Source of the DNA: Eubacteriales bacterium
GTDB taxonomy: Bacteria; Bacillota; Clostridia; Oscillospirales; CAG-272
DNA: 64,000 nucleotides
Direction: 5' to 3'
NCBI GenBank assembly: GCA_045594305.1
Contig: JAZNYH010000034.1
Span: 484 to 64,483 of the forward strand
Each line of letters starts with the position of its first letter. Position 1 is the stretch's first letter. Under the pieces are notes generated by a model. That model saw nothing but the letters and a program-made list of their open reading frames with translations, had not been told where the DNA came from and did not search any database. A program made the translations under genes and the position numbers. Shown one piece after another: positions 202 through 48,873 of the stretch.

Positions 202-382
202 AAATTATTTGTTTCGAATGAACAAATAAGAGCTGTATAATCTGTGCAGAAAGCCTAAAAAAACGGCAAAACTACACAAAACCAAGCTTCAAAATTGTGC
301 ATTGCGACAGATGTTTGTGAACGCAAAATGACCAAAAAGAAAAAAAGCTTTTTTCGGTGCGTGAACGTCACAAAAAATTCAC

Positions 383-411
383 TTGACATATTTTTGAAAA
401 TGGTGTAAAAT
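383..411 (+). promoter_or_regulatory. Sigma-A type promoter for the lipoprotein gene
   Basis: TTGACA (383-388), a 17-nt spacer, then TAAAAT (406-411). Confidence 0.5.
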
Positions 412-485
412 ATATAGGTATAAATGTACCCATGCGCTCCGAGGCTGTTTTCGGGCGGATGTGAACGATTTTGGGAGGAAACAAC

Positions 486-3428
486 ATGAAGAAAAGATGG
501 CTGTGCTTGTTTTTGTGCCTTGTCATGCTGCTTTCGGCGGTCTTGACGAGCTGCTCGAACAAGGAGGATGACGCAAAAGATGACATTTCGGAAGATGCTT
601 CTGCCAGTGCAATGACGCTTTCGATGTGGATCGTTTCGGAGGAGGAGATCTCTACCGAGGCGGCAAACGCTGTGACGAAGGCACTCAACGAGATTACCGA
701 ATCCAAGTTTAAAACGCGTCTTGCGGTCCACTATCTGACCGAGGACGAATACCGCGCAAAGCTGGAGCAGGCAATCGTGGATTACGAGGCCGCAAAGAAG
801 CAGGAGGCTGCTACCGAGACCGAGACCACGCTCCCCGAGGGTGAGTCGGCAAGCGAAACGGTGGTGACCGACGAGACCGAGACCAACGAGATCGGTATGA
901 CGGTGATCAAATATCCCGACGAGCTGAAGAATCAGGTGGATATCATCTACATCACCGGTGAGGATATGTATGTTGACTTCATCGAAAAGGGTTGGCTTGC
1001 GTCCTTGGACAGTGAGCTGGCAAACGCATCGCAGAAGATCAACGAGTACGTTTCGGCTACTCTGCTCAATTCCGCAAAGCACAACGGTGCGACCTACGCG
1101 ATCCCCAACAACCACGCGATCGGTCAGTACACCTATATGCTGCTCAACAAGAACCTGATGTCGAAGTATTCTCAGCAGGGCTACATCAAGACCGGAAAGA
1201 TCACCAGCTTCTACAGCGATCCGCTTCAGTCCTTCCTCAGTCTTGTAACCAAGCTTGAGAACTCCAACCAAGTGGTTGCAATCGATAATAAGGTTTACGA
1301 CAGTGCAAACCCCGAAAACACGGCAACGGCTTACGACTACTGCCTCAATCTGCTGGCACACTACTGGTCGATCGATCCCGAGTCCTACGATATGCTGAAG
1401 GAATTCTCTGTTATCGGTCACCATTACACCGACGGCGAGGAGCTCTCGCGCGGCAGCACGATCCTGGGCTACGAGAGCCTGTTTGAGAACGTGGACTTTA
1501 CCGCCGACTACCTCAAGCTGAATCAGTTCCGCTTCAACGGCTACTTTGGCGATGCCTCCGGTAAGACCGCGGCAATTCGGTTTATGACGGGCGACTACTC
1601 GGTGCAGACCAAGTTTGACGCCAACGGCGACTGCGTATACGTGCTGGACGGCGTAGAGTATTATCCTGTAGTTGTGGAATATCCTACCGCTACCGCCGAT
1701 GATATTTATGGCGACATGTTCGGTGTCTATGCAAAAACGAAGAACGTTGGACGTTGCATGGAGATCGTGACCTACCTCAACACCAATGCGGATTTCCGCA
1801 ACCTTCTCCAGTACGGTGTGCAAGGTGCGCACTATGAGCTTGTCAAGAACAACGACGGAACCACCTCCGTAAAGCGTCTTAACAATAGCTACATGATGGA
1901 TATTTTTGCTACCGGTAACGTATTCATCGCACATCCCGAGCCCGAGATGTCGGCAAACGTTTGGGAGACGGGAAAAGCACAAAACCGTCATTCTTTGGTG
2001 GATCCGCTTTTGGGACTTGATTTCTCCGAGTATTCGGAAAGCACTGGCGCGGCAGCTGCTACCGAGACGCTTCCCAAGGAGGGGTACAACCTTTCCTTTA
2101 CCACCGGTTACTCGACCGATGTGCTGAAGCAGGATGCAACCCTTGCAAAGTGGCTGGCAGACAGCGACACCGCAGGCAACGGCATCTATGTTTACGAGAC
2201 ATCTGTCACCGTGGGTCAGAACAAGACCTATCTCTACTACATCTATAAGAACGGCTTGACCAAGAACGTTGACTTCAACGTGACGGTTGACCGTGAGTTG
2301 AAGACCGAAGAGATCGACGGTGAGAAGATCACCACGCAGACAAGGCTTGACTTCATTTTGAATTACACCGACACCGAGAGTTCCTCCGGCACCGGATACG
2401 AGCTTTCTGTGATGCGTATCTATACCAGAAGAACTAATACCTTTAGAGTGCTTGCCACCGAAAACGAGGCTTCCGCAAATCTGAAGCTCACGCAGGAGTC
2501 CGAGCCTGACAAGGATGTAGATCAGTTCCTTAACTTTGATTTCTACAACACCGACGAGTATTCGATCGAGGTTTACAACACCTTGACCAAGGCAACGATG
2601 CGCAAGAACAAGCTCCTGACCTCTTGGTTTGCAAAATGTGATGCGGATATGAGTGAAGATCCCACCACTTATGTGCTTTCTTACGTGGATCCCGACACTA
2701 AGGTGACCACCTATGTGATCTACCGTACGGGATTGAAAGAAGTGACTACGCAGGTCGTGCAGGCAACCGGCGGCACGGGTGAATTGAATCTGAACCTGCT
2801 GTACACCTCCTCTGCCGACTATCCGTTGAACAGGGAAGAGATGAACTACCTTGTTTCCTACATTCGTGTAACCCCCGCAGATGGCGTGGAGCTGGATATT
2901 GATTACAACATCATCAGCAACGGTGAGAAGGAGAGCGTTCTCTCCTCCAACAAGATCGATGCTCCCTCCGATCCTGACTTTGAGATCGTTGGAAATCTTG
3001 ACACCGAGCTTGTGAAGTACTTTGCATCGCTCAATGACCTGCTTGTTGAAAAGCTGAACGCTTGCGAGGATTACACTACCTTTGCAGAGGTAGTTGCCGA
3101 AATGACCCTGTATCTCTCTACCGATGAAAATGTAAAGGTTTCTGCCTCTTCCTTCAAGCATCTGGCCGACATTGTTGCACAGTATCCCGTGAATGAGCTG
3201 AAAGCAAATCTGAAGAGTGCAACCTCTTACGAGATCGAAAAGCTGATGATTCCCGATCCCGATGCCGAGGTGGAAGAGGATACCCCCGAGGAAGATATCC
3301 CGATGATCGAGGCTCCGTACAAGGATTCCAATGGAAGATCCGAGCCGTACGTATACTTTGATTCTCCTTACGGAATCTACTATTCGTGGATGAACCAGTA
3401 CGGATATCTGCCCTCCACGAAAAAGTAA
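486..3428 (+). CDS. Very large lipoprotein with an N-terminal extracellular solute-binding-protein-like region
   Basis: RBS GGGAGGAA lies before the ATG at 486. The signal peptide is MKKRWLCLFLCLVMLLSAVLTSC, with lipobox LTSC. The segment ...NGATYAIPNN... resembles family-1 SBPs. No permease or ATPase gene is adjacent. Confidence 0.6.
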   Translation: MKKRWLCLFLCLVMLLSAVLTSCSNKEDDAKDDISEDASASAMTLSMWIVSEEEISTEAANAVTKALNEITESKFKTRLAVHYLTEDEYRAKLEQAIVDYEAAKKQEAATETETTLPEGESASETVVTDETETNEIGMTVIKYPDELKNQVDIIYITGEDMYVDFIEKGWLASLDSELANASQKINEYVSATLLNSAKHNGATYAIPNNHAIGQYTYMLLNKNLMSKYSQQGYIKTGKITSFYSDPLQSFLSLVTKLENSNQVVAIDNKVYDSANPENTATAYDYCLNLLAHYWSIDPESYDMLKEFSVIGHHYTDGEELSRGSTILGYESLFENVDFTADYLKLNQFRFNGYFGDASGKTAAIRFMTGDYSVQTKFDANGDCVYVLDGVEYYPVVVEYPTATADDIYGDMFGVYAKTKNVGRCMEIVTYLNTNADFRNLLQYGVQGAHYELVKNNDGTTSVKRLNNSYMMDIFATGNVFIAHPEPEMSANVWETGKAQNRHSLVDPLLGLDFSEYSESTGAAAATETLPKEGYNLSFTTGYSTDVLKQDATLAKWLADSDTAGNGIYVYETSVTVGQNKTYLYYIYKNGLTKNVDFNVTVDRELKTEEIDGEKITTQTRLDFILNYTDTESSSGTGYELSVMRIYTRRTNTFRVLATENEASANLKLTQESEPDKDVDQFLNFDFYNTDEYSIEVYNTLTKATMRKNKLLTSWFAKCDADMSEDPTTYVLSYVDPDTKVTTYVIYRTGLKEVTTQVVQATGGTGELNLNLLYTSSADYPLNREEMNYLVSYIRVTPADGVELDIDYNIISNGEKESVLSSNKIDAPSDPDFEIVGNLDTELVKYFASLNDLLVEKLNACEDYTTFAEVVAEMTLYLSTDENVKVSASSFKHLADIVAQYPVNELKANLKSATSYEIEKLMIPDPDAEVEEDTPEEDIPMIEAPYKDSNGRSEPYVYFDSPYGIYYSWMNQYGYLPSTKK

Positions 3429-3449
3429 ACAACAAATCAAAACCTACAG

Positions 3450-7502: not shown

Positions 7503-8222
7503 ATGAACACTGTAAAAATTGAAAACAACGGCACGAAAATGGTAGCTCACCGCGGTGTGAGCGGACTCGAGCGCGAGAACACCAACCTTGCTTTTGTAGC
7601 GGCGGGGAACCGCTCCTACTTTGGAATCGAGACCGACATTCACTGCACGTCCGACGGAAACTTTGTGTTGCATCACGACGATACCACCACACGGTTGACG
7701 GGGATCGAGCGCGTGATCGAGGAGACCGATTTTGCCACTCTGCGAGCCATGCGCCTTTCGGACGTGGACGGCAGCTACGGGCGCGAGGATTTGGTCATGC
7801 CCACGCTGGAGGAGTACATCGGCATTTGCAAAAAATACGAAAAGGTTGCCGTGCTGGAGCTGAAGCGGCACATGGAAGAGGATCGGGTGCGCGCCATCAT
7901 CGACCGCATCGAAGCGATGGACTATCTCGGTGGGGTGATTTTTATATCCTTCGATTTTGAAAACCTTGTGTACGTACGCAATTACCGCCCCGAGCAGCCC
8001 GTACAGTTTTTGTTCTCCAAGCTCTCCGACGAGACTGTGGAAAAGATGATCGCGCATCGCTTTGATGCCGACGTGTATTTTAAAAGCGTTACACCGGAGT
8101 TTGTGCACATCATGCACGAAGCGGGACTTCTCGTCAACTGCTGGACGGTCGATACGCCCAAGGCTGCCGCCAACTTGATCGCCATGGGCGTGGACTTTAT
8201 TACCTCAAATATTTTGGAGTGA
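7503..8222 (+). CDS. Glycerophosphodiester phosphodiesterase family protein
   Basis: AHRGVSGLERENT...IETDIH is the GDPD signature. Confidence 0.8.
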   Translation: MNTVKIENNGTKMVAHRGVSGLERENTNLAFVAAGNRSYFGIETDIHCTSDGNFVLHHDDTTTRLTGIERVIEETDFATLRAMRLSDVDGSYGREDLVMPTLEEYIGICKKYEKVAVLELKRHMEEDRVRAIIDRIEAMDYLGGVIFISFDFENLVYVRNYRPEQPVQFLFSKLSDETVEKMIAHRFDADVYFKSVTPEFVHIMHEAGLLVNCWTVDTPKAAANLIAMGVDFITSNILE

Positions 8223-10227: not shown

Positions 10228-10353
10228 AACGATCTCCTTTTGAAGTAATTCGGACTGTATCACCATTATACCAATCATGTGCCCTTTTGTCAACCGATTT
10301 TTGCATAACTTTGCGCCGAAAAAGAAAAAAGTATAATTTTTTTCAATTTTCTA

Positions 10354-10382
10354 TTGACAAAAAAACAAGGTTGTGGTATAAT
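10354..10382 (+). promoter_or_regulatory. Promoter of the tRNA cluster
   Basis: TTGACA (10354-10359), a 17-nt spacer, then TATAAT (10377-10382). Confidence 0.65.
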
Positions 10383-10524: not shown

Positions 10525-10601
<77 letters not shown>

Positions 10602-11060: not shown

Positions 11061-11444
11061 ATGAAATGGTTAAAATCAATATTCAAAAAGAAAAAAGTTG
11101 ATATAGCTCCTATGCCTCCTTACGATGAAATTGTAAAATCATTATATGACAAAGAGTTTAATTATCCTGACTCAATTAAAATTTGCCAAGTTATATATAG
11201 CAAGGATAAGTCAAAAAGATTTGTTGTTTTGAAAAGCAACAAAGGCTTTTTTAAGTACGCTTATGAGGAAGTATGCGTTTTTGACGAGCTTGATTGGACT
11301 TCTCATTACGCCTACATAGAGAATATACAACCCGGTTGGTGGGAATCTAAAGATCGTTCGTTTGCTTATTCGTTTTTTGGAACGGAACAAGAAGCGGTTG
11401 AAGCATTAAAACGCGAAACTGAATACAAGCAGTTTTTCGAATAA
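11061..11444 (+). CDS. Hypothetical protein (127 aa), AT-rich orphan
   Basis: RBS GGTGGGG lies before the ATG at 11061. I recognise no family. Confidence 0.55.
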   Translation: MKWLKSIFKKKKVDIAPMPPYDEIVKSLYDKEFNYPDSIKICQVIYSKDKSKRFVVLKSNKGFFKYAYEEVCVFDELDWTSHYAYIENIQPGWWESKDRSFAYSFFGTEQEAVEALKRETEYKQFFE

Positions 11445-11515: not shown

Positions 11516-11541
11516 AAAAGGCACCACACGGTGCCTTTTTT
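11516..11541. terminator. Bidirectional hairpin terminator
   Basis: AAAAGGCACCACACGGTGCCTTTTTT. This is a near-identical twin of 13348-13374. Confidence 0.7.
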
Positions 11542-11738
11542 GTTTATCACAATATAGAAGGATTTGAACGCAGGCGTTAAGAAACGATTAATAATCGTTT
11601 TAGCCGGTGACCGAAGGATTTTGCAAGGCACTTGCTTTATTCCTGTTTTATGTCCTTGCAAAATTCAAGAGCAATATTCTTCTTCCCTTTTTTATTTTTT
11701 GTATTGACAAATATGTAAAAATCGTGTACAATTACTTA

Positions 11739-11846
11739 CAAGGTAGCGAACTCAACCGAAAGGTTGTTTAAGTCGGCTTTGTTCCGGCCCCGCAGAGCGG
11801 AAACGAAAACGTTTCTGCGCCGAGACATTATTGTCTCGGCTTTTTT
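11739..11846 (+). ncRNA. Candidate small RNA A, with its own promoter and terminator
   Basis: Promoter: TTGACA 11704-11709, 17 nt, TACAAT 11727-11732. Internal hairpins CAACC-GAAA-GGTTG and GAAACG-AAAA-CGTTTC. Terminator GCCGAGACA-TTAT-TGTCTCGGC plus T6. There is no RBS or ATG. Confidence 0.4.
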
Positions 11847-11896
11847 CTTTTTTATTTTGTATTGACAAATGTGTGAAAATAGAGTACAATATTTAC

Positions 11897-11971
11897 GAAA
11901 ACGGCATCCCTGGTCCTTAAATTAACGGGCAAGAGTGTGGAGTCGCACGATTGTGCACCGTTTTCTTTTTT
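11897..11971 (+). ncRNA. Candidate small RNA B
   Basis: Promoter: TTGACA 11862-11867, 17 nt, TACAAT 11885-11890. The closing stem GAAAACGG (11897-11904) / CCGTTTTC (11958-11965) is followed by a T-tract. Inner hairpin GCAC-GATT-GTGC. Confidence 0.4.
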
Positions 11972-12014
11972 ATTTTGTATTGACTTTTAAAAAAGTATAG
12001 TATATATTCTTAAT

Positions 12015-12087
12015 AAGAAGATAAGTGAAGTTACTACATTTAGGTAACTACTGAGGAACTTCCTCAATTGGCTTATCTTCTTTTTTT
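12015..12087 (+). ncRNA. Candidate small RNA C
   Basis: Promoter: TTGACT 11980-11985, 17 nt, TATATT 12003-12008. An 11-bp closing stem, AAGAAGATAAG (12015-12025) / CTTATCTTCTT (12072-12082), encloses two hairpins (AGTTAC...GTAACT and TGAGGAA-C-TTCCTCA). A T-tract follows. Confidence 0.4.
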
Positions 12088-12106
12088 ATTTTGTATTGAT
12101 TTTGTA

Positions 12107-12136
12107 TTGACATTTACATTTAGATAATGGTAAAAT
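12107..12136 (+). promoter_or_regulatory. Fourth copy of the repeated promoter, driving the oxidoreductase gene
   Basis: TTTTGTATTGA is duplicated, followed by TTGACA (12107-12112), 18 nt, then TAAAAT (12131-12136). Confidence 0.5.
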
Positions 12137-13347: not shown

Positions 13348-13374
13348 AAAAAGGCACCACATGGTGCCTTTTTT
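13348..13374. terminator. Bidirectional hairpin terminator
   Basis: AAAAAGGCACCACATGGTGCCTTTTTT. Confidence 0.75.
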
Positions 13375-14371
13375 AGTCCTTTTTGTACTTTTCTCTATAC
13401 TTTTTTAGAGCGTAATAATGGTAGTTACGCATTGCTATTCCAAGCTTTTTGGGAGATAGAATTAAGGCACTATCGCCAAAACGCTCAAAGTAATAAAGTG
13501 CTTGGTTTGCAGAGCAATTAAAATAATAAATATTGCCCTCTATTTTTTGTGGGATTGGTCTATACAGGTATATCTTTTGAAATAGCTTCTTACCTCTTTC
13601 GCTTAGCTCAACCTTTATGGGCTCATCATCTGATGGATAAAACGGATATTGAACGCCATTTTCAAGCTGTTTTTTAAACAGCTCGATATTTTTTTGCGGT
13701 ATTACTGCCTTACTTGACAAAAGCGAAACCGAGCTTATGCTGGCGAGGCGTACTGTGTGATTATCCTTATCGCTATATGAAAGCAAATAATTAAACAGCT
13801 CATCTCTTGACGAGGCGAGTGCATATAGCGACAAATTATTATACACATGTCCTGTTTTGAGCACGACGCAAGCCTGTACTCCCTTTGAAATTGCTTTATT
13901 TAAAAGCTCAAAATTTTCCTTGTGTATGATTTTTTCTCTATCGTTCTTAGGCTTTTTCGAGTATCTAATGAAAAGCCTTCTATAAAACGATGAGATTGCC
14001 TCATTTTTTATGAGAACATTTTCAATAAAGCTAATCTCTCTTTGTGATTGCTTTGTAGGCTTAAAGGAAAGCGTGGCACTTTCCTTTTTTGTTTTTTCCT
14101 CATCCACGCCTCTCTTAGAAAGAACCTTGACTATTCCCTCAAAGGCACGCATTTTATATTGCTCTGGCACGCAAAAAAGTGCTTCCTTAATTTCATCGTG
14201 TAGCCTCTCCTCGCTCGAAGAAAACTCCTCGTAAAAATTAACAATGAGCGTGTTTATAAAAGCATTAAAATTGCTCTCGCCATTTTCCTTTAATATTTTA
14301 AAGTCCTCGCAATCCTTTTTTAAAAGCAATAGGGTTTGCTTGGGTAGGCTGACCTTTATTTTTTCCTCCAT
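13373..14371 (-). CDS. Putative RHH-WYL domain transcriptional regulator
   Basis: The N-terminus IKVSLPKQTLLLLKKDCEDF...NFNAFINTLIVNFYEEF looks ribbon-helix-helix. The segment LSLYALASSRDELFNYLLSYSDKDNHTVRLASISSVSLL fits the WYL pattern (P..L...WYL......R.FRL.RI). The C-terminal YYFERFGDSALILSPKKL resembles the WYL C-terminal extension. Confidence 0.5.
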   Translation of the reverse strand: MEEKIKVSLPKQTLLLLKKDCEDFKILKENGESNFNAFINTLIVNFYEEFSSSEERLHDEIKEALFCVPEQYKMRAFEGIVKVLSKRGVDEEKTKKESATLSFKPTKQSQREISFIENVLIKNEAISSFYRRLFIRYSKKPKNDREKIIHKENFELLNKAISKGVQACVVLKTGHVYNNLSLYALASSRDELFNYLLSYSDKDNHTVRLASISSVSLLSSKAVIPQKNIELFKKQLENGVQYPFYPSDDEPIKVELSERGKKLFQKIYLYRPIPQKIEGNIYYFNCSANQALYYFERFGDSALILSPKKLGIAMRNYHYYALKKYREKYKKD

Positions 14372-14550
14372 AATATCACCTCTTAAAAATATTGTACACT
14401 AAAAGGGGGCATTTTGTCAATATATAATCGCATAAATACTAAGTTTATATCGTTTTTTAGGGGGCAAAAAATTTTTAAATATTGCCAATTTAATTCGACA
14501 CCATTTTGCAATATAATGGAAATATCAAGAAAAAAGCGAGGTGTTGAAGA

Positions 14551-15021
14551 ATGAAATGGACTTCCTACTACACAATATCTAAGAGCAAAAGCAGATATGA
14601 TATTGTAGAGGTTAATTTGAAAGAAAAAAGCTATTGTCTTTATTTAGGCTGTAATGATTTTGATGCGTGTCTAACTGGCGGAAAGCCTGTATATTTATGT
14701 CGTGAGGAATTTGACAAGGTGCTCTCTGCTTACAAGCAGAGTGAGGTGCTTGATTTGTCGAAATACAACCCCGAGGATTACACTCGCTTTTACAGAGAAA
14801 GCATTTATGATTGCTACACTGTAGATATGATAGAAATCAATTCTGTAACTAAGGAATACACTCTACGCTTTGACATAAGCGATTCAAACACGGACGGGTG
14901 CGATGTGTTGGGGAACGAAATCTACTCTACCTATGTAGGAGATTTGATTTTTGATGCGATTGTAGAGGGTATTAAGATAAGTGGCTTTAAGGAGGTGTCA
15001 GAGTTCAATGACATTTCATGA
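14551..15021 (+). CDS. Hypothetical protein (156 aa) with two copies of a ~70-aa module
   Basis: RBS GAGGTG is present. The C-terminal DLIFDAIVEGIKISGF is paralogous to the next ORF. Confidence 0.6.
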   Translation: MKWTSYYTISKSKSRYDIVEVNLKEKSYCLYLGCNDFDACLTGGKPVYLCREEFDKVLSAYKQSEVLDLSKYNPEDYTRFYRESIYDCYTVDMIEINSVTKEYTLRFDISDSNTDGCDVLGNEIYSTYVGDLIFDAIVEGIKISGFKEVSEFNDIS

Positions 15022-15238
15022 CGGAGAATGCATTGAGATTTTTTGTGCTGTTTCCGAGCTCGATTCTAACACATGCGATTATCTTTTCGTATCCGAGCTA
15101 CAAGAAGGAGAATATTTCTTATTAAAACAGCAACGCCCTTTTTTTGATGTTGAAATCACAAATCGTGCAATTTTCGATGCGATAGTGAGTGGACTTCAAA
15201 AATTAGGCTTAAAGCAAAGAGAGCTAAAAATAATTTGA
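15008..15238 (+). CDS. Hypothetical protein (76 aa), a single copy of the same module
   Basis: RBS AAGGAGGTG lies 9 nt before the ATG at 15008, which overlaps the upstream stop by 14 nt. RAIFDAIVSGLQKLGL matches the ORF1 C-terminus. Confidence 0.55.
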   Translation: MTFHDGECIEIFCAVSELDSNTCDYLFVSELQEGEYFLLKQQRPFFDVEITNRAIFDAIVSGLQKLGLKQRELKII

Positions 15239-15263
15239 CAATTATAAAAAAGGAGATGATTAT

Positions 15264-16259
15264 ATGACTTACACAGTACCAAAAAAGGTTTTCTCAAAGA
15301 ATAGCGTAATACAAAAAATGGAAATCCATTTTCTAAATGGAGATTTTGTAACCATTAGAAAAAATGAAATTTGCAATATCTCGATAGCCTTCTACGATAT
15401 GCTATTTAGGCACAAGGATAAGCTTTATCCTATTGCCCGCAATGGATTTGTAAAGCTTAGAATACAAGACGGAAAAGCAAAGCACGAGAAAATCTCATTA
15501 CACAATGAGCACGAATACAAATCGGGAAGAAAGAGTTACATAGAGCACAGATGTCTCTGCGAGGAGCCTATCAAGTTCATAAAGCTATACAACCAAAACA
15601 ACTGGTCAGACAATATCTATGGCGATATTCAAGTGGTATTAGAGGGCTATTATCTCTTCTTGAAATTCAAGCCAAACGATACACTTGGCCCTTGGGAGAG
15701 CGATGAGCATTTTGTTAATTTGGCTCACCCATCTAAGGATCAAATCTTTAAGATGAGATTGGACTTTGAAAACTGCGATGGCATCGATGTCTACAACTCC
15801 GAAATTATTGATATGAACTTAGCTTTCGACAAAAGGCTCGAATGGATAAGCTCTGGCTACACACGCACTGTAAGAGGTGGATTTATAAAAATTAAGCTTA
15901 GTGAGGACTTTGATTGTAGGTACTTTAATATTTTCAATGACGGAAAAAGAGTGAAATTGAAGCATCTCGAAAGGCGAATTTGCGGAAACGGGCGTGATTC
16001 GGTTGACATTTGCAATTTATATCTTGATTTTTATTGTGGGTATGAATTGAGTGGAGAGCACATATGTGTTGATAGCATTTATCGAACCTATGATGATAGG
16101 CTCGATCCATACGCCGACTTTGACTCGCATTATTACGACAGCATTGACTATGAGGATGAGGGCGAGGACGACGATGATGACTATTACGAGTGCTTTGAAA
16201 GTGGCTTTGCACAAAGGCTTGATGACGGCTCAATTAAGATTGTTTTTGGCAAGCCATAA
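15264..16259 (+). CDS. Hypothetical protein (331 aa) with an internal duplication and an acidic, aromatic C-terminal tail
   Basis: RBS AAGGAGA is present. IQKMEIHFLNGDFVTIRKNEICNISIAF aligns with IFKMRLDFENCDGIDVYNSEIIDMNLAF. The tail reads YEDEGEDDDDDYYECFESGF. Confidence 0.6.
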   Translation: MTYTVPKKVFSKNSVIQKMEIHFLNGDFVTIRKNEICNISIAFYDMLFRHKDKLYPIARNGFVKLRIQDGKAKHEKISLHNEHEYKSGRKSYIEHRCLCEEPIKFIKLYNQNNWSDNIYGDIQVVLEGYYLFLKFKPNDTLGPWESDEHFVNLAHPSKDQIFKMRLDFENCDGIDVYNSEIIDMNLAFDKRLEWISSGYTRTVRGGFIKIKLSEDFDCRYFNIFNDGKRVKLKHLERRICGNGRDSVDICNLYLDFYCGYELSGEHICVDSIYRTYDDRLDPYADFDSHYYDSIDYEDEGEDDDDDYYECFESGFAQRLDDGSIKIVFGKP

Positions 16260-16287: not shown

Positions 16288-16315
16288 AAAGAACCGACAT
16301 TGTCGGTTCTTTTTT
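16288..16315. terminator. Bidirectional terminator
   Basis: GAACCGAC-ATT-GTCGGTTC flanked by an A-run and a T-run. Confidence 0.7.
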
Positions 16316-45876: not shown

Positions 45877-48873
45877 ATGAAGGACGCTATTATTAATAAT
45901 AATCCGCCTGTTTCGGGCGATGACAAGAGCTTTATATTCATTTCCTATTCACACATGGACAAGGAAATGGTGTATGAGGACCTTTGGGCGTTGCACGAAA
46001 AAGGCTTTGCCTTTTGGTATGATAATGGAATAACCGCAGGAGAGGTTTGGAACGAGGTTGTTGAGGAGAAAATAAACCATCCAAGCTGTAAGCTTGCTAT
46101 CTTTTTCGTGTCCGAGAACACAATAAAAAGCCCTGCTATTAGGCGTGAAATGCAGCTCGTTCAGGATAGGAAGGTGCCCTTCTTTACCATAAACACAACT
46201 GGCACAATGGTTCAAACGCTTGTTGGTCAGGCACTTGTTGAGGGCAGTGTTAGTCTTACTGACATTTCTCTTTATCAATCCTTCTTCCATAATGACATAA
46301 TCTACATAAGCCGTAGTGAGGCTGGCTATATGGACAATGTCGCTATTCAGTGCATGCGTCACGGTCTTGAAGCAAGCTTTGAGGTTGTCAATGTAAGAAA
46401 CACCACAAAGAAGATACTTATAATCTGCAAAAACAGTAGCTTTTCTAACTCTATTATCAATGGAGTGTACGACTTCTTCTCTATGAAGGAGAATGTAATA
46501 GTCGACAAAAAGCTCGTTGACAAGAACCTAAACAGGCTTGAATGTGCAACAGAGTTTAGCCGTATTTTGCAGGAAAACATAAATGAATACGACGGCTTTA
46601 TTCTTCGTGTTCCCGAAAAGTATAACGACCAGCTCCTTAGCTACATCAACAAGATTATGGAGCTTGGAAAGAGAGTTGTTTTGCTCGATATTGAGCTAAG
46701 CCCCGACAAGCTAAATGGTGCGACCACAATTCCATCATATGTTGGTAGCGACTTTGTAACTGGTGGCATGCTCCTTGGCGAAAGAATGGGAGATCTTGCA
46801 ATCAAGCTCGGTCCAAACAACACAAGCATTGTGCTTTTTGAGGGTCCTTACGCAAATCCATCTGCAAAGATAAGATGCGATAGCCTTTATAGCAAGCTTA
46901 TTTCAACCGCTCCAAACGCCTCTATTCTTCGCTATAATTTGCCCTCTCTTACTGCCTCGACAGCCATTAACTACATAAAGGATCAGGCAAGCGATTGGGA
47001 AAAGAACAGAGCCTTAGCGGGCAAGAATGTCATCCTATTTTGTGGCATTGACAATATTGCCGTAGAGGTTATGCGTACGCTTGCAAGAAACGAGGACTTC
47101 AACCCTATAAACACAGTTTTAAAGGGTGCTAAAAAGCTCATTGTTGTTGGCTATGATGGTATTCGTGATGCCAATAACGAGGTTGTTCTCAAAAACTACG
47201 GAATTGATTTCCTAACAATAGATGTTGTTCCCTTTAAGCAGGGTGTAAATGCTGGCGAAAAGATGTTCTCTATGCTCTTTAAGCACGAGGAAAACGGCAA
47301 GCTTCTTACACAGCCTGAGCTTATTGAGTACATAAAATTCAACACAGAAAAGTTTGATAATGCACAGGACATTAAATTCCTTCTCAATGACAAAAAGGCG
47401 TTTATTTTCGACCTTGATGGCACAATTGCAGATACGGAAACGCTACACTGGGAGGCGTATAATGTTCTTCTTGCAGAGCATAATGTTCACCTGTCAAATA
47501 ATGATATAAGCAGGTATATTGGAAACTCCGAGGTGCGTATTTATGAGATGATAAAGCGTGACTTTGGTATTGATTTTGATGAGGATGATTTTCTTGAAAG
47601 GCGTATTGGTATTTACCTTGACCTTGTTGAGAAAAAGAATTTAAGACCATTTCCATTTATCTATGATATTTTGAAGATGTCAAATGGCAAAAATGCTATT
47701 GTAACCTCTCAAATTCCATTGGTTGTAAATAAGCTTTTAACCCTTTGGGGGCTTGATGATTACTTCCCTGCTAATATGCGCTTCTGTTGTCACGATGGCA
47801 GATATGTAAAGAAGGAAATCTACAAGAGCGTCGGCTCATATCTCGGCTTTAATCATCCCGTAAGCCCAAGAGATGTTGTTTTGTTTGAGGACTCTGTCCA
47901 TTATATTGCAGAGGCTAAAAAGCTCGGAATTACGGTTGTTGGTGTTGAGCATAAATTCAACAGACACACCTTAAAGGCGTGTGACGCTATTATGTCTGCA
48001 AGCCTACACAGAGGAGCATTTGTCGGTCTTTGTGGCTTAGATGTTGTTTATTATGGAACGACAGGTATGCCCGAGGAGGACTCAAAGATGAGCGTGCGTG
48101 ACTTCTCCTTTGAGGTTGGTGGCCCTGCTGCAAACGCTGCTATTACTTATGCTAAGCTCGGTGGAGAGGCGTATCTTGTAACTCGCATTGGCGATAGTGC
48201 CGAGGGGCTTTTGCTCAAATCCAAATTGAAGGAGCTTAATGTAAGGGTTATTGACATTGATGCCGATAACAAGGAGCGTAAGTGTAATGCGTCCTTTGTA
48301 TACATAAATCAATCAAACGCAACTCGAACAATATTTAGTGGTCAAATTCCACCCGCAGAGTCGTGCGATATTGACTTTGAGGAGATTGTTAAGCGTGCTG
48401 ATTTTGTCCTCTATGACGGCAATTTGCCAAGGGCTGAGGATAAGCTGATAAAGTATGTAGAATATTATGACAAGGACCTCATAATTGATGCAGGAAGCTA
48501 CAAGGCAGGATTTCCCGAGTGCTTCTATCGTGCAAGCACAGTAATATCCTCTGAGAGCTTTAAGGACCAATCTGGTGCAGATGTGTTTGAGCTACAAGGA
48601 AGATACGGATTTAGATACGCTGCAAAGACTCGTGGTGGCAAGTCAGTTATATATAATACTGCCACAGGTAGGGGCGAAATACCCGTTGAGAGCGTCAAGG
48701 CCATTGACACCCTTGGTGCTGGCGATATTATTCACGGTGCGTATTGCTATTTCTATTATGTAAAGAAGCTACCATTTGAAAAGGCTCTTGAAAATGCCTC
48801 TCGTATTGCAACCCTTAGCGTTACTAAGCGTGGTGTTGTAAATGGTCTTAAATATGCTATTGATAAGCTTTAA
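45877..48873 (+). CDS. Four-domain fusion: TIR-like, periplasmic-binding-protein (LacI-type) sugar-binding, HAD-IA phosphatase and PfkB carbohydrate kinase
   Basis: aa 18-140: FIFISYSHMD...GEVW...AIFFVSENTIKSPAIRRE. aa 178-485: VGSDFVTGG, FEGP, VVGYDG. aa 507-695: DLDGT (nt 47410), VTSQ, FEDS. aa 713-998: GGPAANAA and DTLGAGD (nt 48706). Confidence 0.7.
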   Translation: MKDAIINNNPPVSGDDKSFIFISYSHMDKEMVYEDLWALHEKGFAFWYDNGITAGEVWNEVVEEKINHPSCKLAIFFVSENTIKSPAIRREMQLVQDRKVPFFTINTTGTMVQTLVGQALVEGSVSLTDISLYQSFFHNDIIYISRSEAGYMDNVAIQCMRHGLEASFEVVNVRNTTKKILIICKNSSFSNSIINGVYDFFSMKENVIVDKKLVDKNLNRLECATEFSRILQENINEYDGFILRVPEKYNDQLLSYINKIMELGKRVVLLDIELSPDKLNGATTIPSYVGSDFVTGGMLLGERMGDLAIKLGPNNTSIVLFEGPYANPSAKIRCDSLYSKLISTAPNASILRYNLPSLTASTAINYIKDQASDWEKNRALAGKNVILFCGIDNIAVEVMRTLARNEDFNPINTVLKGAKKLIVVGYDGIRDANNEVVLKNYGIDFLTIDVVPFKQGVNAGEKMFSMLFKHEENGKLLTQPELIEYIKFNTEKFDNAQDIKFLLNDKKAFIFDLDGTIADTETLHWEAYNVLLAEHNVHLSNNDISRYIGNSEVRIYEMIKRDFGIDFDEDDFLERRIGIYLDLVEKKNLRPFPFIYDILKMSNGKNAIVTSQIPLVVNKLLTLWGLDDYFPANMRFCCHDGRYVKKEIYKSVGSYLGFNHPVSPRDVVLFEDSVHYIAEAKKLGITVVGVEHKFNRHTLKACDAIMSASLHRGAFVGLCGLDVVYYGTTGMPEEDSKMSVRDFSFEVGGPAANAAITYAKLGGEAYLVTRIGDSAEGLLLKSKLKELNVRVIDIDADNKERKCNASFVYINQSNATRTIFSGQIPPAESCDIDFEEIVKRADFVLYDGNLPRAEDKLIKYVEYYDKDLIIDAGSYKAGFPECFYRASTVISSESFKDQSGADVFELQGRYGFRYAAKTRGGKSVIYNTATGRGEIPVESVKAIDTLGAGDIIHGAYCYFYYVKKLPFEKALENASRIATLSVTKRGVVNGLKYAIDKL

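Follow-up and report, generated by a model that had tools for sequence, protein, structure and literature searches.

The window analyzed here is a 64,000-nt stretch of DNA from a Eubacteriales bacterium of lineage CAG-272 (assembly GCA_045594305.1, contig JAZNYH010000034.1, positions 484-64,483 of the forward strand). It contains an AT-rich cassette of ~2.9 kb, in which a regulator gene on the minus strand lies back-to-back with an operon of three open reading frames (ORF1, ORF2 and ORF3) on the plus strand. This locus and its relatives have a WYL1-family gene, a phased two-box region that overlaps the promoter of that gene, and an operon of three tightly coupled genes, of which the terminal one is exchanged between collinear loci and the upstream ones encode variable module proteins. 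We favor the view that the locus is a regulated, exchangeable-cargo cassette, that is, a control module joined to swappable cargo, whose likeliest role would be an inducible conflict or stress response rather than metabolism. We put the probability of this at about 55%. Within this model, we consider a role against phages or mobile elements somewhat more probable than one confined to damage or stress, and a function in defense is plausible but unproven. A first, sequence-only reading of this DNA had proposed a regulator-controlled accessory system, an idea strengthened by the conserved two-box putative operator and by the swapping of cargo.

The regulator and its control region

The regulator matched the PADLOC WYL model PDLC01652 over residues 149-315 (E = 3.2e-7). 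Against PDB sequences, its top match and the only significant one was 6OAW, the structure of WYL1 (E = 5.9e-5 for the single sequence). A profile of 29 regulator homologues likewise found 6OAW alone, with E = 2.8e-13. The profile alignment spans the WYL barrel and the C-terminal dimerization domain, includes a conserved YYFeRFG...ILSP block, and reaches residue 390 of the 393 in the chain; identity to 6OAW is low, and the N-terminal ~110 residues lie outside the alignment. Because the 29-homologue profile finds only 6OAW, and does so through both barrel and C-terminal domain, we place the minus-strand protein in the WYL1 branch of WYL proteins. The single sequence had no match in Pfam or NCBIfam, and the family falls outside the Pfam WYL model, since PF13280 matches only one of the 29 members.

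The layout of the regulator is a basic N-terminal region, putatively binding nucleic acid, followed by the WYL barrel, the presumed ligand sensor, and a dimerization-type domain. Two strand-like motifs mark the N-terminal region. The first, KIKVSL in the window protein, appears as K4-I-K6-I-S8-L in the alignment, with K4, K6 and S8 invariant. The second, LSFKP, is (F/L)SFKP across the family, with F103 and P105 invariant. At the level of pattern, as judged from the alignment, the two motifs are placed like the tandem ribbon-helix-helix domains (RHH1 and RHH2) of RspWYL1. In motif 1, basic and polar residues alternate in the way described as canonical for RHH strands that read DNA (PMC6547453), which would fit a putative RHH fold. 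Profile scans of the regulator gave no match to any helix-turn-helix (HTH) family, the winged HTH (wHTH) included, and the WCX profile matched only 2 of the 29 family members (E = 0.011). Thus, where an RHH-WYL-type regulator had been claimed, the WYL part is confirmed by the PADLOC and 6OAW matches, whereas the RHH part drew no profile match.

The divergent intergenic region between the regulator gene and ORF1 spans 179 bp. We aligned 17 homologous regions, representing both regulator clades, and scanned 30 regions for boxes. Four conserved blocks were seen amid diverged DNA: TGTAC.CTAAAAGGGG(G/T)CA, A(A/T)AGGGG(G/T)CA(A/T)AA, TTGC(C/G) and TATAAT. The predicted regulator promoter matches the consensus at 11 of 12 positions, more than any other candidate in the region, and is kept across the 17 aligned regions. 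Box 1 is a putative autorepression operator, and box 2, ~45 nt upstream of the predicted cargo -10, is a putative operator or activator site for the cargo promoter. Between box 2 and the -10 lies the TTGCCA element, which reads TTGCGG in loci with an AAA-type cargo (see below). As a cargo -35 element it was ruled out, since the spacer would be 24 nt. Because TTGCCA is too far from the -10, the cargo promoter looks activator-dependent or overlapped by a binding site, and the element is probably part of the regulator site or of an activator-dependent promoter. The elements of the sigma-54 consensus are ~12 nt apart, and a sigma-54 reading of GGGGC...TTGC was discarded on the basis of its ~20-nt spacing.

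The paired boxes are a consistent feature of these regions. In 26 of 30 intergenic regions, the cargo strand carries exactly two GGGG(G/T)C boxes and the reverse strand carries none; box density was 10.8 per kb, compared to 0.17 per kb in 1.19 Mb of background. The boxes are 44-45 or 55-56 nt apart in 25 of the 26 two-box regions (51 nt in the other one), and these two spacing classes differ by one helical turn. Moreover, the layout persists with regulators only 36-41% identical to that of the window and with different cargo. Asymmetric direct boxes of this kind would suit a dimeric regulator whose single-chain RHH domains are pseudo-dimeric. To test for a regulon, the window was also scanned for further boxes; this gave 6 matches versus 2.8 +/- 1.7 expected, no more than chance, and the other five each carried a mismatch. 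A promoter-like repeat at 11690-12008 contains part of the first block, namely its TGTAC/TACAAT part (TGTACAAT on the opposite strand), but not the GGGG(G/T)C boxes. The TGTAC/TACAAT part is therefore a generic promoter feature of this genome.

For comparison, we considered the WYL proteins that have been described. To our knowledge, only HTH-type WYL regulators have been shown to act on DNA, and the only known role of WYL1 is to boost Cas13d as an RNA-binding protein. RspWYL1 (6OAW), an accessory of the type VI-D CRISPR-Cas13d system of Ruminococcus, has a similar length and three-part layout, and both proteins come from gut Clostridia. RspWYL1 is a dimer that prefers single-stranded RNA (ssRNA) over double-stranded DNA (dsDNA), partly via an arginine at a normally polar strand position, and its RHH2 lacks the canonical alternating basic/polar strand pattern (PMC6547453). 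Whereas RspWYL1 is linked to Cas13d and CRISPR, the window regulator is divergent from non-CRISPR cargo, and related loci carry other cargo too. The 64-kb window has no CRISPR-like array, and its large ORFs include no Cas13d-sized HEPN or Cas13d-like protein. The conserved boxes in the regulator's own promoter would imply activity as a transcription factor, beyond what is known of WYL1.

WYL transcription factors described so far respond to single-stranded DNA (ssDNA) or further signals of nucleic-acid type, and the genes that they control are neighboring ones for stress or defense; examples are DriD (PMC9186387), BrxR (PMC9122601), CapW (PMC9122588) and SiwR (PMC10693628). BrxR and CapW (wHTH-WYL-WCX) resemble the case described here in that one family of WYL regulators adjoins, and presumably controls, varied cargo (PMC9122601, PMC9122588). 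Yet they have a winged HTH and an inverted-repeat operator and lie beside BREX, CBASS and other defense systems, whereas the window regulator has no HTH match, its boxes are two asymmetric direct ones, and its cargo is not a known defense system. It may work like BrxR and CapW, but we do not count it as a member of their family, because it lacks a wHTH. With DriD, PafBC and SiwR the likeness is one of promoter geometry: box 2 upstream of a good -10 without a canonical -35 suits activation, and an ssDNA trigger is plausible (PMC9186387, PMC10693628). These proteins differ in having HTH domains and DNA-repair or division targets, as opposed to orphan cargo and a putative regulator site that overlaps the regulator's own promoter.

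Cargo proteins and their exchange

ORF1 carries a conserved TDG(Y/C)D loop and is built from two beta3-alpha-beta modules of ~70 aa; ORF2 is a single module of the same kind. Profile-profile comparison (hhalign) of the N- and C-terminal halves of ORF1 gave a probability of 95% (E = 2.7e-8), and ORF2 matched the C-terminal module of ORF1 with a probability of 98% (E = 6.7e-15). These data uphold the earlier claim of a module present in 2 + 1 copies. The further claim that the modules end in FDAIV.G applies to the C-terminal module of ORF1 and to ORF2, to which the motif is confined, but not to the N-terminal module of ORF1. The AlphaFold2 model of ORF1 (predicted local distance difference test, pLDDT, 85) shows two beta3-alpha-beta modules and had no fold match in the PDB (Foldseek; best E = 0.09, template modeling (TM) score <0.32). 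By hhalign, the module is unrelated to the ORF3 repeats (probability below 3%). The ORF1 family is small, with ~14 clusters even when a profile is used as query. ORF1, ORF2 and ORF3 are all soluble and acidic, with net charges of -11 to -14, no hydrophobic segment and no recognized catalytic motif. None of them matched a PADLOC-DB v2 family at E<=1, or a Pfam or NCBIfam family beyond noise, and phmmer searches of PDB sequences with ORF1 and ORF3 returned nothing meaningful.

ORF3 is predicted to be a two-lobed beta protein. The internal duplication noted earlier is well supported: hhalign aligned its N- and C-terminal halves with a probability of 97.6% (E = 3e-12). The AlphaFold2 model, built from a 28-sequence alignment, is almost all-beta (pLDDT 89, predicted TM score 0.84), with a repeat unit of ~six strands, a helix, and three to four strands that occurs twice. 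For both ORF1 and ORF3, the secondary-structure pattern of the models repeats in the same way as the duplications found by hhalign. The cassette proteins stay conserved across 30-100% identity and keep invariant polar motifs; in ORF3, the motifs NGD, YD, LDFENC, RRICG and DIC.LY are invariant. Invariant polar residues of ORF3 also recur at matching places in its two halves (NGD/ENC(D), E35/E180, and GFIK.K twice), which suggests two related binding pockets rather than a recognizable catalytic site.

Structural comparison links ORF3 to phage proteins. Versus the PDB, Foldseek found no significant match for the ORF3 model (best E = 0.025, TM at most 0.25), and resemblances of the cargo models to PilZ, Hcp/tail-tube and gelsolin proteins were rejected as insignificant (best E = 0.025 for ORF3 and 0.09 for ORF1). 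PilZ receptors of cyclic di-GMP are characterized by the motifs RxxxR and (D/N)xSxxG. ORF3 was rejected as a receptor of this type, as the match was poor (E = 0.025, TM 0.18-0.25) and these motifs are absent from its conserved columns. Versus BFVD, by contrast, 12 matches were obtained at E<=1e-3, all to uncharacterized phage proteins of 120-260 aa (most 120-175), which cover one repeat unit of ORF3 (best E = 4e-5, TM up to 0.59 when normalized by the target). In line with this, 12 of 28 members of the ORF3 family matched phrog_2349 at E<=0.01 (best E = 5.6e-6), the ORF3 of the window itself reaching only E = 0.33. One ORF3 repeat superposes on phrog_2349 and on phage proteins of ~130-160 aa from Acinetobacter phages Acj9 and 133, Cronobacter phage GAP32 and Lactobacillus phage SAC12B (Foldseek E 4e-5 to 1e-3, probability 1.0, TM 0.5-0.59). 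The phage proteins are single units, whereas ORF3 is a tandem duplication with an added acidic loop. The statement that the cargo belongs to no recognizable family thus stands for ORF1-3 with respect to Pfam, NCBIfam, PADLOC and the PDB, but part of the ORF3 family resembles phrog_2349, and one ORF3 repeat resembles phage proteins. No match for ORF3, a divergent ORF3 homologue or the regulator was found by tblastn in 50,697 GenBank phages. Scans of IMG/VR with ORF3 and regulator profiles found no relatives either, so a prophage origin is not supported.

ORF3 also contains a stretch rich in acidic and aromatic residues, which had been described as a C-terminal tail reminiscent of DNA-mimic proteins. 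It is instead an internal loop, inserted before the last beta-hairpin; this hairpin (residues 314-328) is conserved and confidently modeled, whereas pLDDT falls below 50 at residues 292-307 of the loop. The loop is 42-55 aa long in the six cassette-linked members whose context is known and 18-37 aa long in 15 more distant members. Three of these 15 have a known context, and all three are standalone, although the sample is small and confounded by phylogeny. The resemblance to DNA mimics is therefore weak: the loop is predicted to be disordered, is variable in length and short in distant homologues, and no PDB match was found.

The ORF3 family is considerably larger than that of ORF1. A word-indexed search found 30 clusters, all unnamed and all from gut metagenomes or metagenome-assembled genomes (MAGs) of Clostridia, and when 1.84 billion representatives were searched exhaustively with HMMER, the family came to 215 clusters, almost all of them 300-340 aa long. 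There were no informative fusion partners among the 215 representatives, only double-length tandem and insert variants. Two loci (L003, ~7850-7930; L005, ~7760-7840) carry standalone ORF3 homologues directly 3' of a tRNA gene, with their own promoter.

We then examined how the cassette is distributed. The genes co-occur outside the source genome in at least nine other metagenome or MAG loci with varied neighborhoods, as the sequence-only reading would predict. The arrangement, with the regulator on the minus strand followed by ORF1, optionally ORF2, optionally an extra two-module paralogue, and then ORF3, was seen in L001/L002, L007, L008/L015, L009, L011, L012 and L013, and the flanking genes vary among these loci. 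ORF2 is absent in L008, L011, L012 and L013, and L001 has an additional 172-aa two-module gene; the core of the cassette is therefore regulator, ORF1 and ORF3. The ORF1/ORF2 module, by comparison, is variable in copy number and fast-evolving. In all 10 ORF1-containing loci, the G+C content of the cassette is 3-10 points below that of its flanks.

Homologues of the regulator were found in 29 loci when one genome per GTDB species was scanned, with 36-69% identity to the window protein (53-69% among Clostridia-type MAGs and 36-39% in the three most distant loci). Their hosts are uncultured, Christensenellales-like Clostridia living in animal guts (Ca. Coproplasma, Scatosoma, Limadaptatus, Ornithoclostridium and 'Christensenella'); a few distant loci come from Mollicutes-type or Solobacterium MAGs. 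Five types of cargo were seen beside the regulator: ORF1 (with or without ORF2) and ORF3; ORF1, ORF2 and an AAA-pseudoM41 protein; AAA-pseudoM41 alone; a DUF2828/DUF7788 protein; and a 705-aa orphan. In ~18 of the 29 loci, the divergent neighbor is not ORF1-3 but a soluble protein of ~470 aa with Pfam matches to AAA (E about 1e-26, e.g. 2e-26) and Peptidase_M41 (E about 1e-7 to 1e-10, e.g. 4e-7). This AAA-pseudoM41 protein is the commonest cargo of the regulator family (L014, L016-L031, L033, L034, L038, L040 and L041). A neighbor-joining tree places the ORF1/ORF3-linked regulators in one clade, sister to the AAA-linked regulators.

AAA-pseudoM41, which is absent from the window, has both Pfam domains of the FtsH-type AAA+/M41 proteases. 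Unlike those proteases, it is soluble, has lost the HExxH zinc site in all 20 regulator-adjacent copies (18 genome loci plus L040 and L041), and carries in each of them an insert between the domains that is rich in D, E and Y, with 12-22 acidic residues per 30. Its PADLOC matches are generic AAA-type ones alone (IetA, DolB, TRIP13), and we know of no described equivalent of this family of pseudo-protease ATPases. The presence of a D/E/Y-rich insert in both of the unrelated effectors, ORF3 and AAA-pseudoM41, is a striking and unexplained parallel.

The clearest case of exchange comes from a pair of loci. L040 and L041, which were reached via ORF1 homologues, contain the regulator, an ORF1-like gene, an ORF2-like gene, optionally a two-module gene, and AAA-pseudoM41. 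Gene order is shared by L041 and L009 over the stretch bounded by Lactamase_B and alpha-L-fucosidase genes, with amino-acid identities of 64% (Lactamase_B), 79% (regulator), 53% (ORF1), 55% (ORF2) and 71% (fucosidase). Their nucleotide alignment breaks exactly around the third gene of the operon, which is ORF3 in L009 and AAA-pseudoM41 in L041. ORF3 and the ATPase therefore share a slot, a cassette and a chromosomal site. Identity matrices are also discordant, in that the window regulator is nearest to those of L011/L012, ORF3 to those of L013/L001, and ORF1 to that of L007; this points to recombination between cassettes.

Some relatives of the regulator lie in other settings. In L033 (780-4790), a relative sits beside two AAA-M41 genes and a Cas9 gene; the second of the AAA-M41 genes, further upstream, retains HExxH. 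In L035 (2935-6808; a Mollicutes-type MAG), a distant relative lies beside ClpP and a type IV secretion coupling protein, the latter indicating that the locus is on a conjugative element. Among plasmids, tblastn with the regulator found only two distant (27%) Fusobacterium genes annotated 'WYL domain-containing protein'. The nearest of these (L042; 27%) is at 155379-156233 of Fusobacterium animalis pSB029A, on the same strand as hflX and 3' of it, with no divergent cargo. Its position next to hflX is uninformative.

Layout and surroundings of the cassette

The coordinates of the cassette features are collected in Table 1. The ORF listing agrees with the four ORFs described earlier, including the 14-nt overlap of ORF1 and ORF2 and the 25-nt gap between ORF2 and ORF3. 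For ORF2, a longer alternative from a GTG at 14981 is possible; a Shine-Dalgarno sequence, GGAGGTG, precedes the ATG used here. Shine-Dalgarno sequences are present at all four gene starts. Each boundary hairpin has an A-run and a T-run, so both terminators are taken to be bidirectional, as had been claimed.

Table 1. Positions of cassette features in the window
Feature	Position	Strand	Description
Left-boundary terminator hairpin	13348-13373		AAAAAGGCACC-ACAT-GGTGCCTTTTT; 11-pair stem with 5 GC pairs; overlaps regulator stop codon
Regulator gene	13373-14371	-	332 aa, isoelectric point (pI) 9.3
Predicted regulator promoter	14391-14420	-	TTGACA 14420-14415, 18-nt spacer, TACAAT 14396-14391
Box 1, AAAAGGGGGCAT	14401-14412	+	Core GGGGGC 14405-14410; inside regulator-promoter spacer; invariant columns in 17 regions
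Box 2, TTTAGGGGGCAAAAA	14456-14470	+	Core GGGGGC 14460-14465; oriented like box 1, from which it lies 55 nt downstream
TTGCCA element	14482-14487	+	24 nt upstream of -10; columns T112, G113 and C114 invariant or nearly so
Predicted cargo -10, TATAAT	14512-14517	+	Conserved; 33 nt before ORF1 start
ORF1 Shine-Dalgarno	14538-14543	+	Sequence GAGGTG
ORF1	14551-15021	+	156 aa, pI 4.4
ORF2	15008-15238	+	76 aa, pI 4.5; ATG start at 15008
ORF3	15264-16259	+	331 aa, pI 5.3
Acidic/aromatic disordered loop of ORF3	16059-16199	+	Residues 266-312; 19 D/E and 10 Y/F/W in 47 aa
Right-boundary terminator hairpin	16288-16312		11-pair stem; common to cassette and convergent AraC-family gene

The AT-richness noted earlier is real, and the two 60-nt counts given for it (17/60 and 24/60) are exact. 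The G+C content of the cassette is 36.7%, compared to 43.0% for the window, and only 0.5% of 2887-bp windows are as AT-rich, with the lowest ones all overlapping the cassette segment. A search for att-like direct repeats flanking the cassette found only a duplicated hairpin: the left terminator (13349-13374) has a copy at 11516-11541, 1.8 kb upstream, with 96% identity over 26 nt. These two copies bracket a GFO/IDH oxidoreductase gene and a stretch of promoter repeats, not the cassette. In that stretch (11690-12110, also 10340-10382) are three to four copies of a 43-nt promoter-like unit, TTGACA-N17-TACAAT after a T-run, spaced 118-158 nt apart. The units sit in an ORF-free, AT-rich stretch upstream of the GFO/IDH gene, and a weaker copy precedes a tRNA cluster. 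Rfam had nothing at the units (11690-12110), which may be stacked promoters or small RNA genes.

The cassette lies 2.6 kb from this tRNA cluster. Just 3' of the cluster is an orphan ORF of 127 aa (11061-11444, plus strand; 33% G+C) without a Pfam match, and the AT-rich zone therefore begins at ~10790, ahead of the cassette. Between tRNA-Gly and tRNA-His, Rfam detected a partial tRNA (10532-10590, plus strand; 50.5 bits, model positions 8-63) that ARAGORN did not call; it may be a truncated or atypical tRNA. Two further features of the window lie elsewhere. A 998-aa ORF (45877-48873, plus strand) combines a TIR_2 domain (E = 6e-11) with a HAD hydrolase and a PfkB-type sugar/nucleoside kinase, an unusual fusion that could be a defense or NAD-signaling gene. 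At the left end, ORFs of ~1000 aa overlap on opposite strands (255-3440, minus; 471-3428, plus), the plus-strand one (985 aa) having no Pfam match; only one of these ORFs can be genuine, and it encodes a large orphan protein, the other being spurious.

Alternative readings and significance

In the model we favor, a regulator dimer would occupy both boxes on one face of the helix, repress the regulator's own gene and gate the cargo promoter. By analogy with DriD, BrxR, CapW and SiwR, the operon would be switched on once the WYL domain has bound a ligand of nucleic-acid type, either by derepression or by class-II-like activation; the latter is considered because the cargo promoter has no canonical -35. 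ORF1 and ORF2 would be subunits that confer specificity or act as adaptors, and ORF3, in the exchangeable terminal slot, would be an effector that works by stoichiometric binding. As soluble, acidic proteins that lack catalytic motifs, all three cargo products most likely act in this way. The conflict reading draws support from the swapping of effectors, the discordance of gene trees, the AT-richness and the kinship of the ORF3 repeat to phage proteins, and also from regulator relatives found next to Cas9 in L033 and on a conjugative element in L035. The model as a whole is further favored by the D/E/Y-rich insert common to both effectors, by the conservation of the proteins and their confident AlphaFold2 models, and by the known behavior of other WYL transcription factors.

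Several observations weigh against this model. Regulators of this kind had been expected beside defense operons, but no ORF1/ORF3 locus is in a recognizable defense island, and the neighbors are sugar-metabolism genes (GFO/IDH, AraC, UxuA and similar). PADLOC returned nothing for ORF1-3, nor did Pfam, NCBIfam or the PDB. ORF3 homologues of ~36% identity occur standalone, behind their own promoters and without the regulator or ORF1, and so ORF3 does not need the cassette. The predicted N-terminal RHH had no match in any sequence profile (Pfam and PDB, residues 1-80; also a profile of the N-terminus versus the PDB), and the promoter and operator assignments come from consensus matching and conservation only. 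RspWYL1 binds ssRNA, disfavors dsDNA, and acts on the Cas13d protein rather than on a promoter (PMC6547453). Finally, the 29 regulator loci come from 29 different assemblies, with no sign of multiple copies per genome; one locus per assembly and a tree split by cargo also fit vertical inheritance of a core stress regulator.

This last point leads to the rival to which we give most weight, although we rate it as unlikely: a vertically inherited core stress or DNA-damage regulon, similar to those of DriD and PafBC, as opposed to a defense against phages. Here the WYL protein would sense ssDNA or ssRNA arising from damage and induce local small proteins (e.g. of cell-cycle or chaperone type), and the differences in cargo would reflect lineage divergence. 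This would account for the good conservation of the regulator, the clean split of its tree by cargo type and the housekeeping or sugar genes around the loci. WYL activators of damage responses are, moreover, established (PMC9186387, PMC10693628), and box 2 upstream of a promoter without a -35 has the geometry of an activator site. But divergence of lineages sits poorly with an effector replaced in situ between collinear loci and with discordant gene trees. Also against it are the persistently AT-rich cassette, module proteins that vary in copy number and evolve fast, the phage-related ORF3 repeat, and regulator relatives next to Cas9 and on a conjugative element.

The other alternatives appear improbable. 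The small acidic proteins encoded directly upstream of a larger gene, overlapping or tightly coupled to it, recall a toxin-antitoxin or addiction module, in which ORF3 or the AAA ATPase would inhibit growth, the module proteins would neutralize it and the regulator would set expression. The downstream partner is indeed exchangeable while the upstream genes are conserved and vary in copy number. However, ORF3 occurs alone in many genomes without an ORF1/2 partner, is itself acidic and has no toxin-like motif; AAA-pseudoM41 has no adjacent module protein in most loci; and a separate dedicated regulator is atypical of type II toxin-antitoxin systems. Slightly less probable still is that the WYL1-like protein is not a transcription factor but an ssRNA-binding accessory that boosts a protein partner, with the conserved blocks being promoter elements only. 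This is how its sole solved relative behaves, binding ssRNA, contacting Cas13d and disfavoring dsDNA (PMC6547453), and the unconfirmed RHH and the recurrence of TGTAC/TACAAT in other promoters of the window, which makes conservation partly generic, are in keeping with it. Yet the GGGG(G/T)C boxes are not promoter hexamers: they are paired, on the same strand, helically phased and kept down to 36% regulator identity. The invariant K4/K6/S8 strand has the canonical DNA-reading pattern that is missing in RspWYL1 RHH2 (PMC6547453), and the window has no Cas13d gene. Least probable of all is that these are anti-defense proteins, with the acidic aromatic stretch of ORF3 mimicking DNA and thereby inhibiting restriction or nucleic-acid-binding proteins. 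The net charges, the 19 D/E residues in the 47-aa loop and the structural similarity of the ORF3 repeat to small uncharacterized phage proteins would suit such a role. Known mimics such as Ocr and ArdA are rigid charge arrays. The loop of ORF3, by contrast, is predicted to be disordered, its length varies between 18 and 55 aa within the family, and distant homologues have short versions of it. In addition, no DNA-mimic fold of the PDB was matched, the location is chromosomal, and no relatives were found in IMG/VR or GenBank phages.

Returning to the exchangeable-cargo cassette, a fuller version of it can be sketched, which we regard as speculative and rather doubtful as a whole. The loci would form a family, not described before, of inducible conflict cassettes of Christensenellales-like gut Clostridia, in which a WYL1-type DNA-binding sensor with a single-chain tandem RHH reads the two asymmetric, phased boxes and the terminal slot holds either ORF3, built from a phage-derived domain, or a AAA+ ATPase with a dead protease. 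The module proteins would provide specificity or act as adaptors. The D/E/Y-rich insert would be a nucleic-acid-mimicking peptide that contacts the basic regulator or a target, closing a feedback loop.

In open-access text, we found no description of a WYL1-type protein as an operator-binding transcription factor, nor of this cassette. As judged by the comparisons above, the cargo lies outside every described family of defense, toxin-antitoxin or DNA-mimic proteins. We regard the locus as a WYL-regulated accessory cassette with two orphan protein families, and not as categorically new, because nothing yet shows a new principle. Both of these small families are now defined by confident models and have no relatives of solved structure, and ORF3 is linked to the phage family phrog_2349.

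Bacterial immune and damage responses are increasingly found to be switched by regulators with a WYL domain. In the locus and its ~35 relatives, a WYL1-type protein is paired with a putative two-box operator that is conserved and phased, a concrete combination open to direct test. The relatives also amount to a natural swap experiment: under one control module, and even at one chromosomal site, the cargo is either an orphan beta protein with two lobes or an AAA+ ATPase of pseudo-protease type, and such swapping of the terminal gene is the usual signature of effector exchange in conflict systems. Were the fuller version sketched above correct, transcription control would be the ancestral role of the Cas13d helper WYL1. 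And if the cassette responds to phage or nucleic-acid stress, it would add a non-enzymatic type of effector and a new regulator architecture to the defense catalogue of gut Clostridia, which are little studied.

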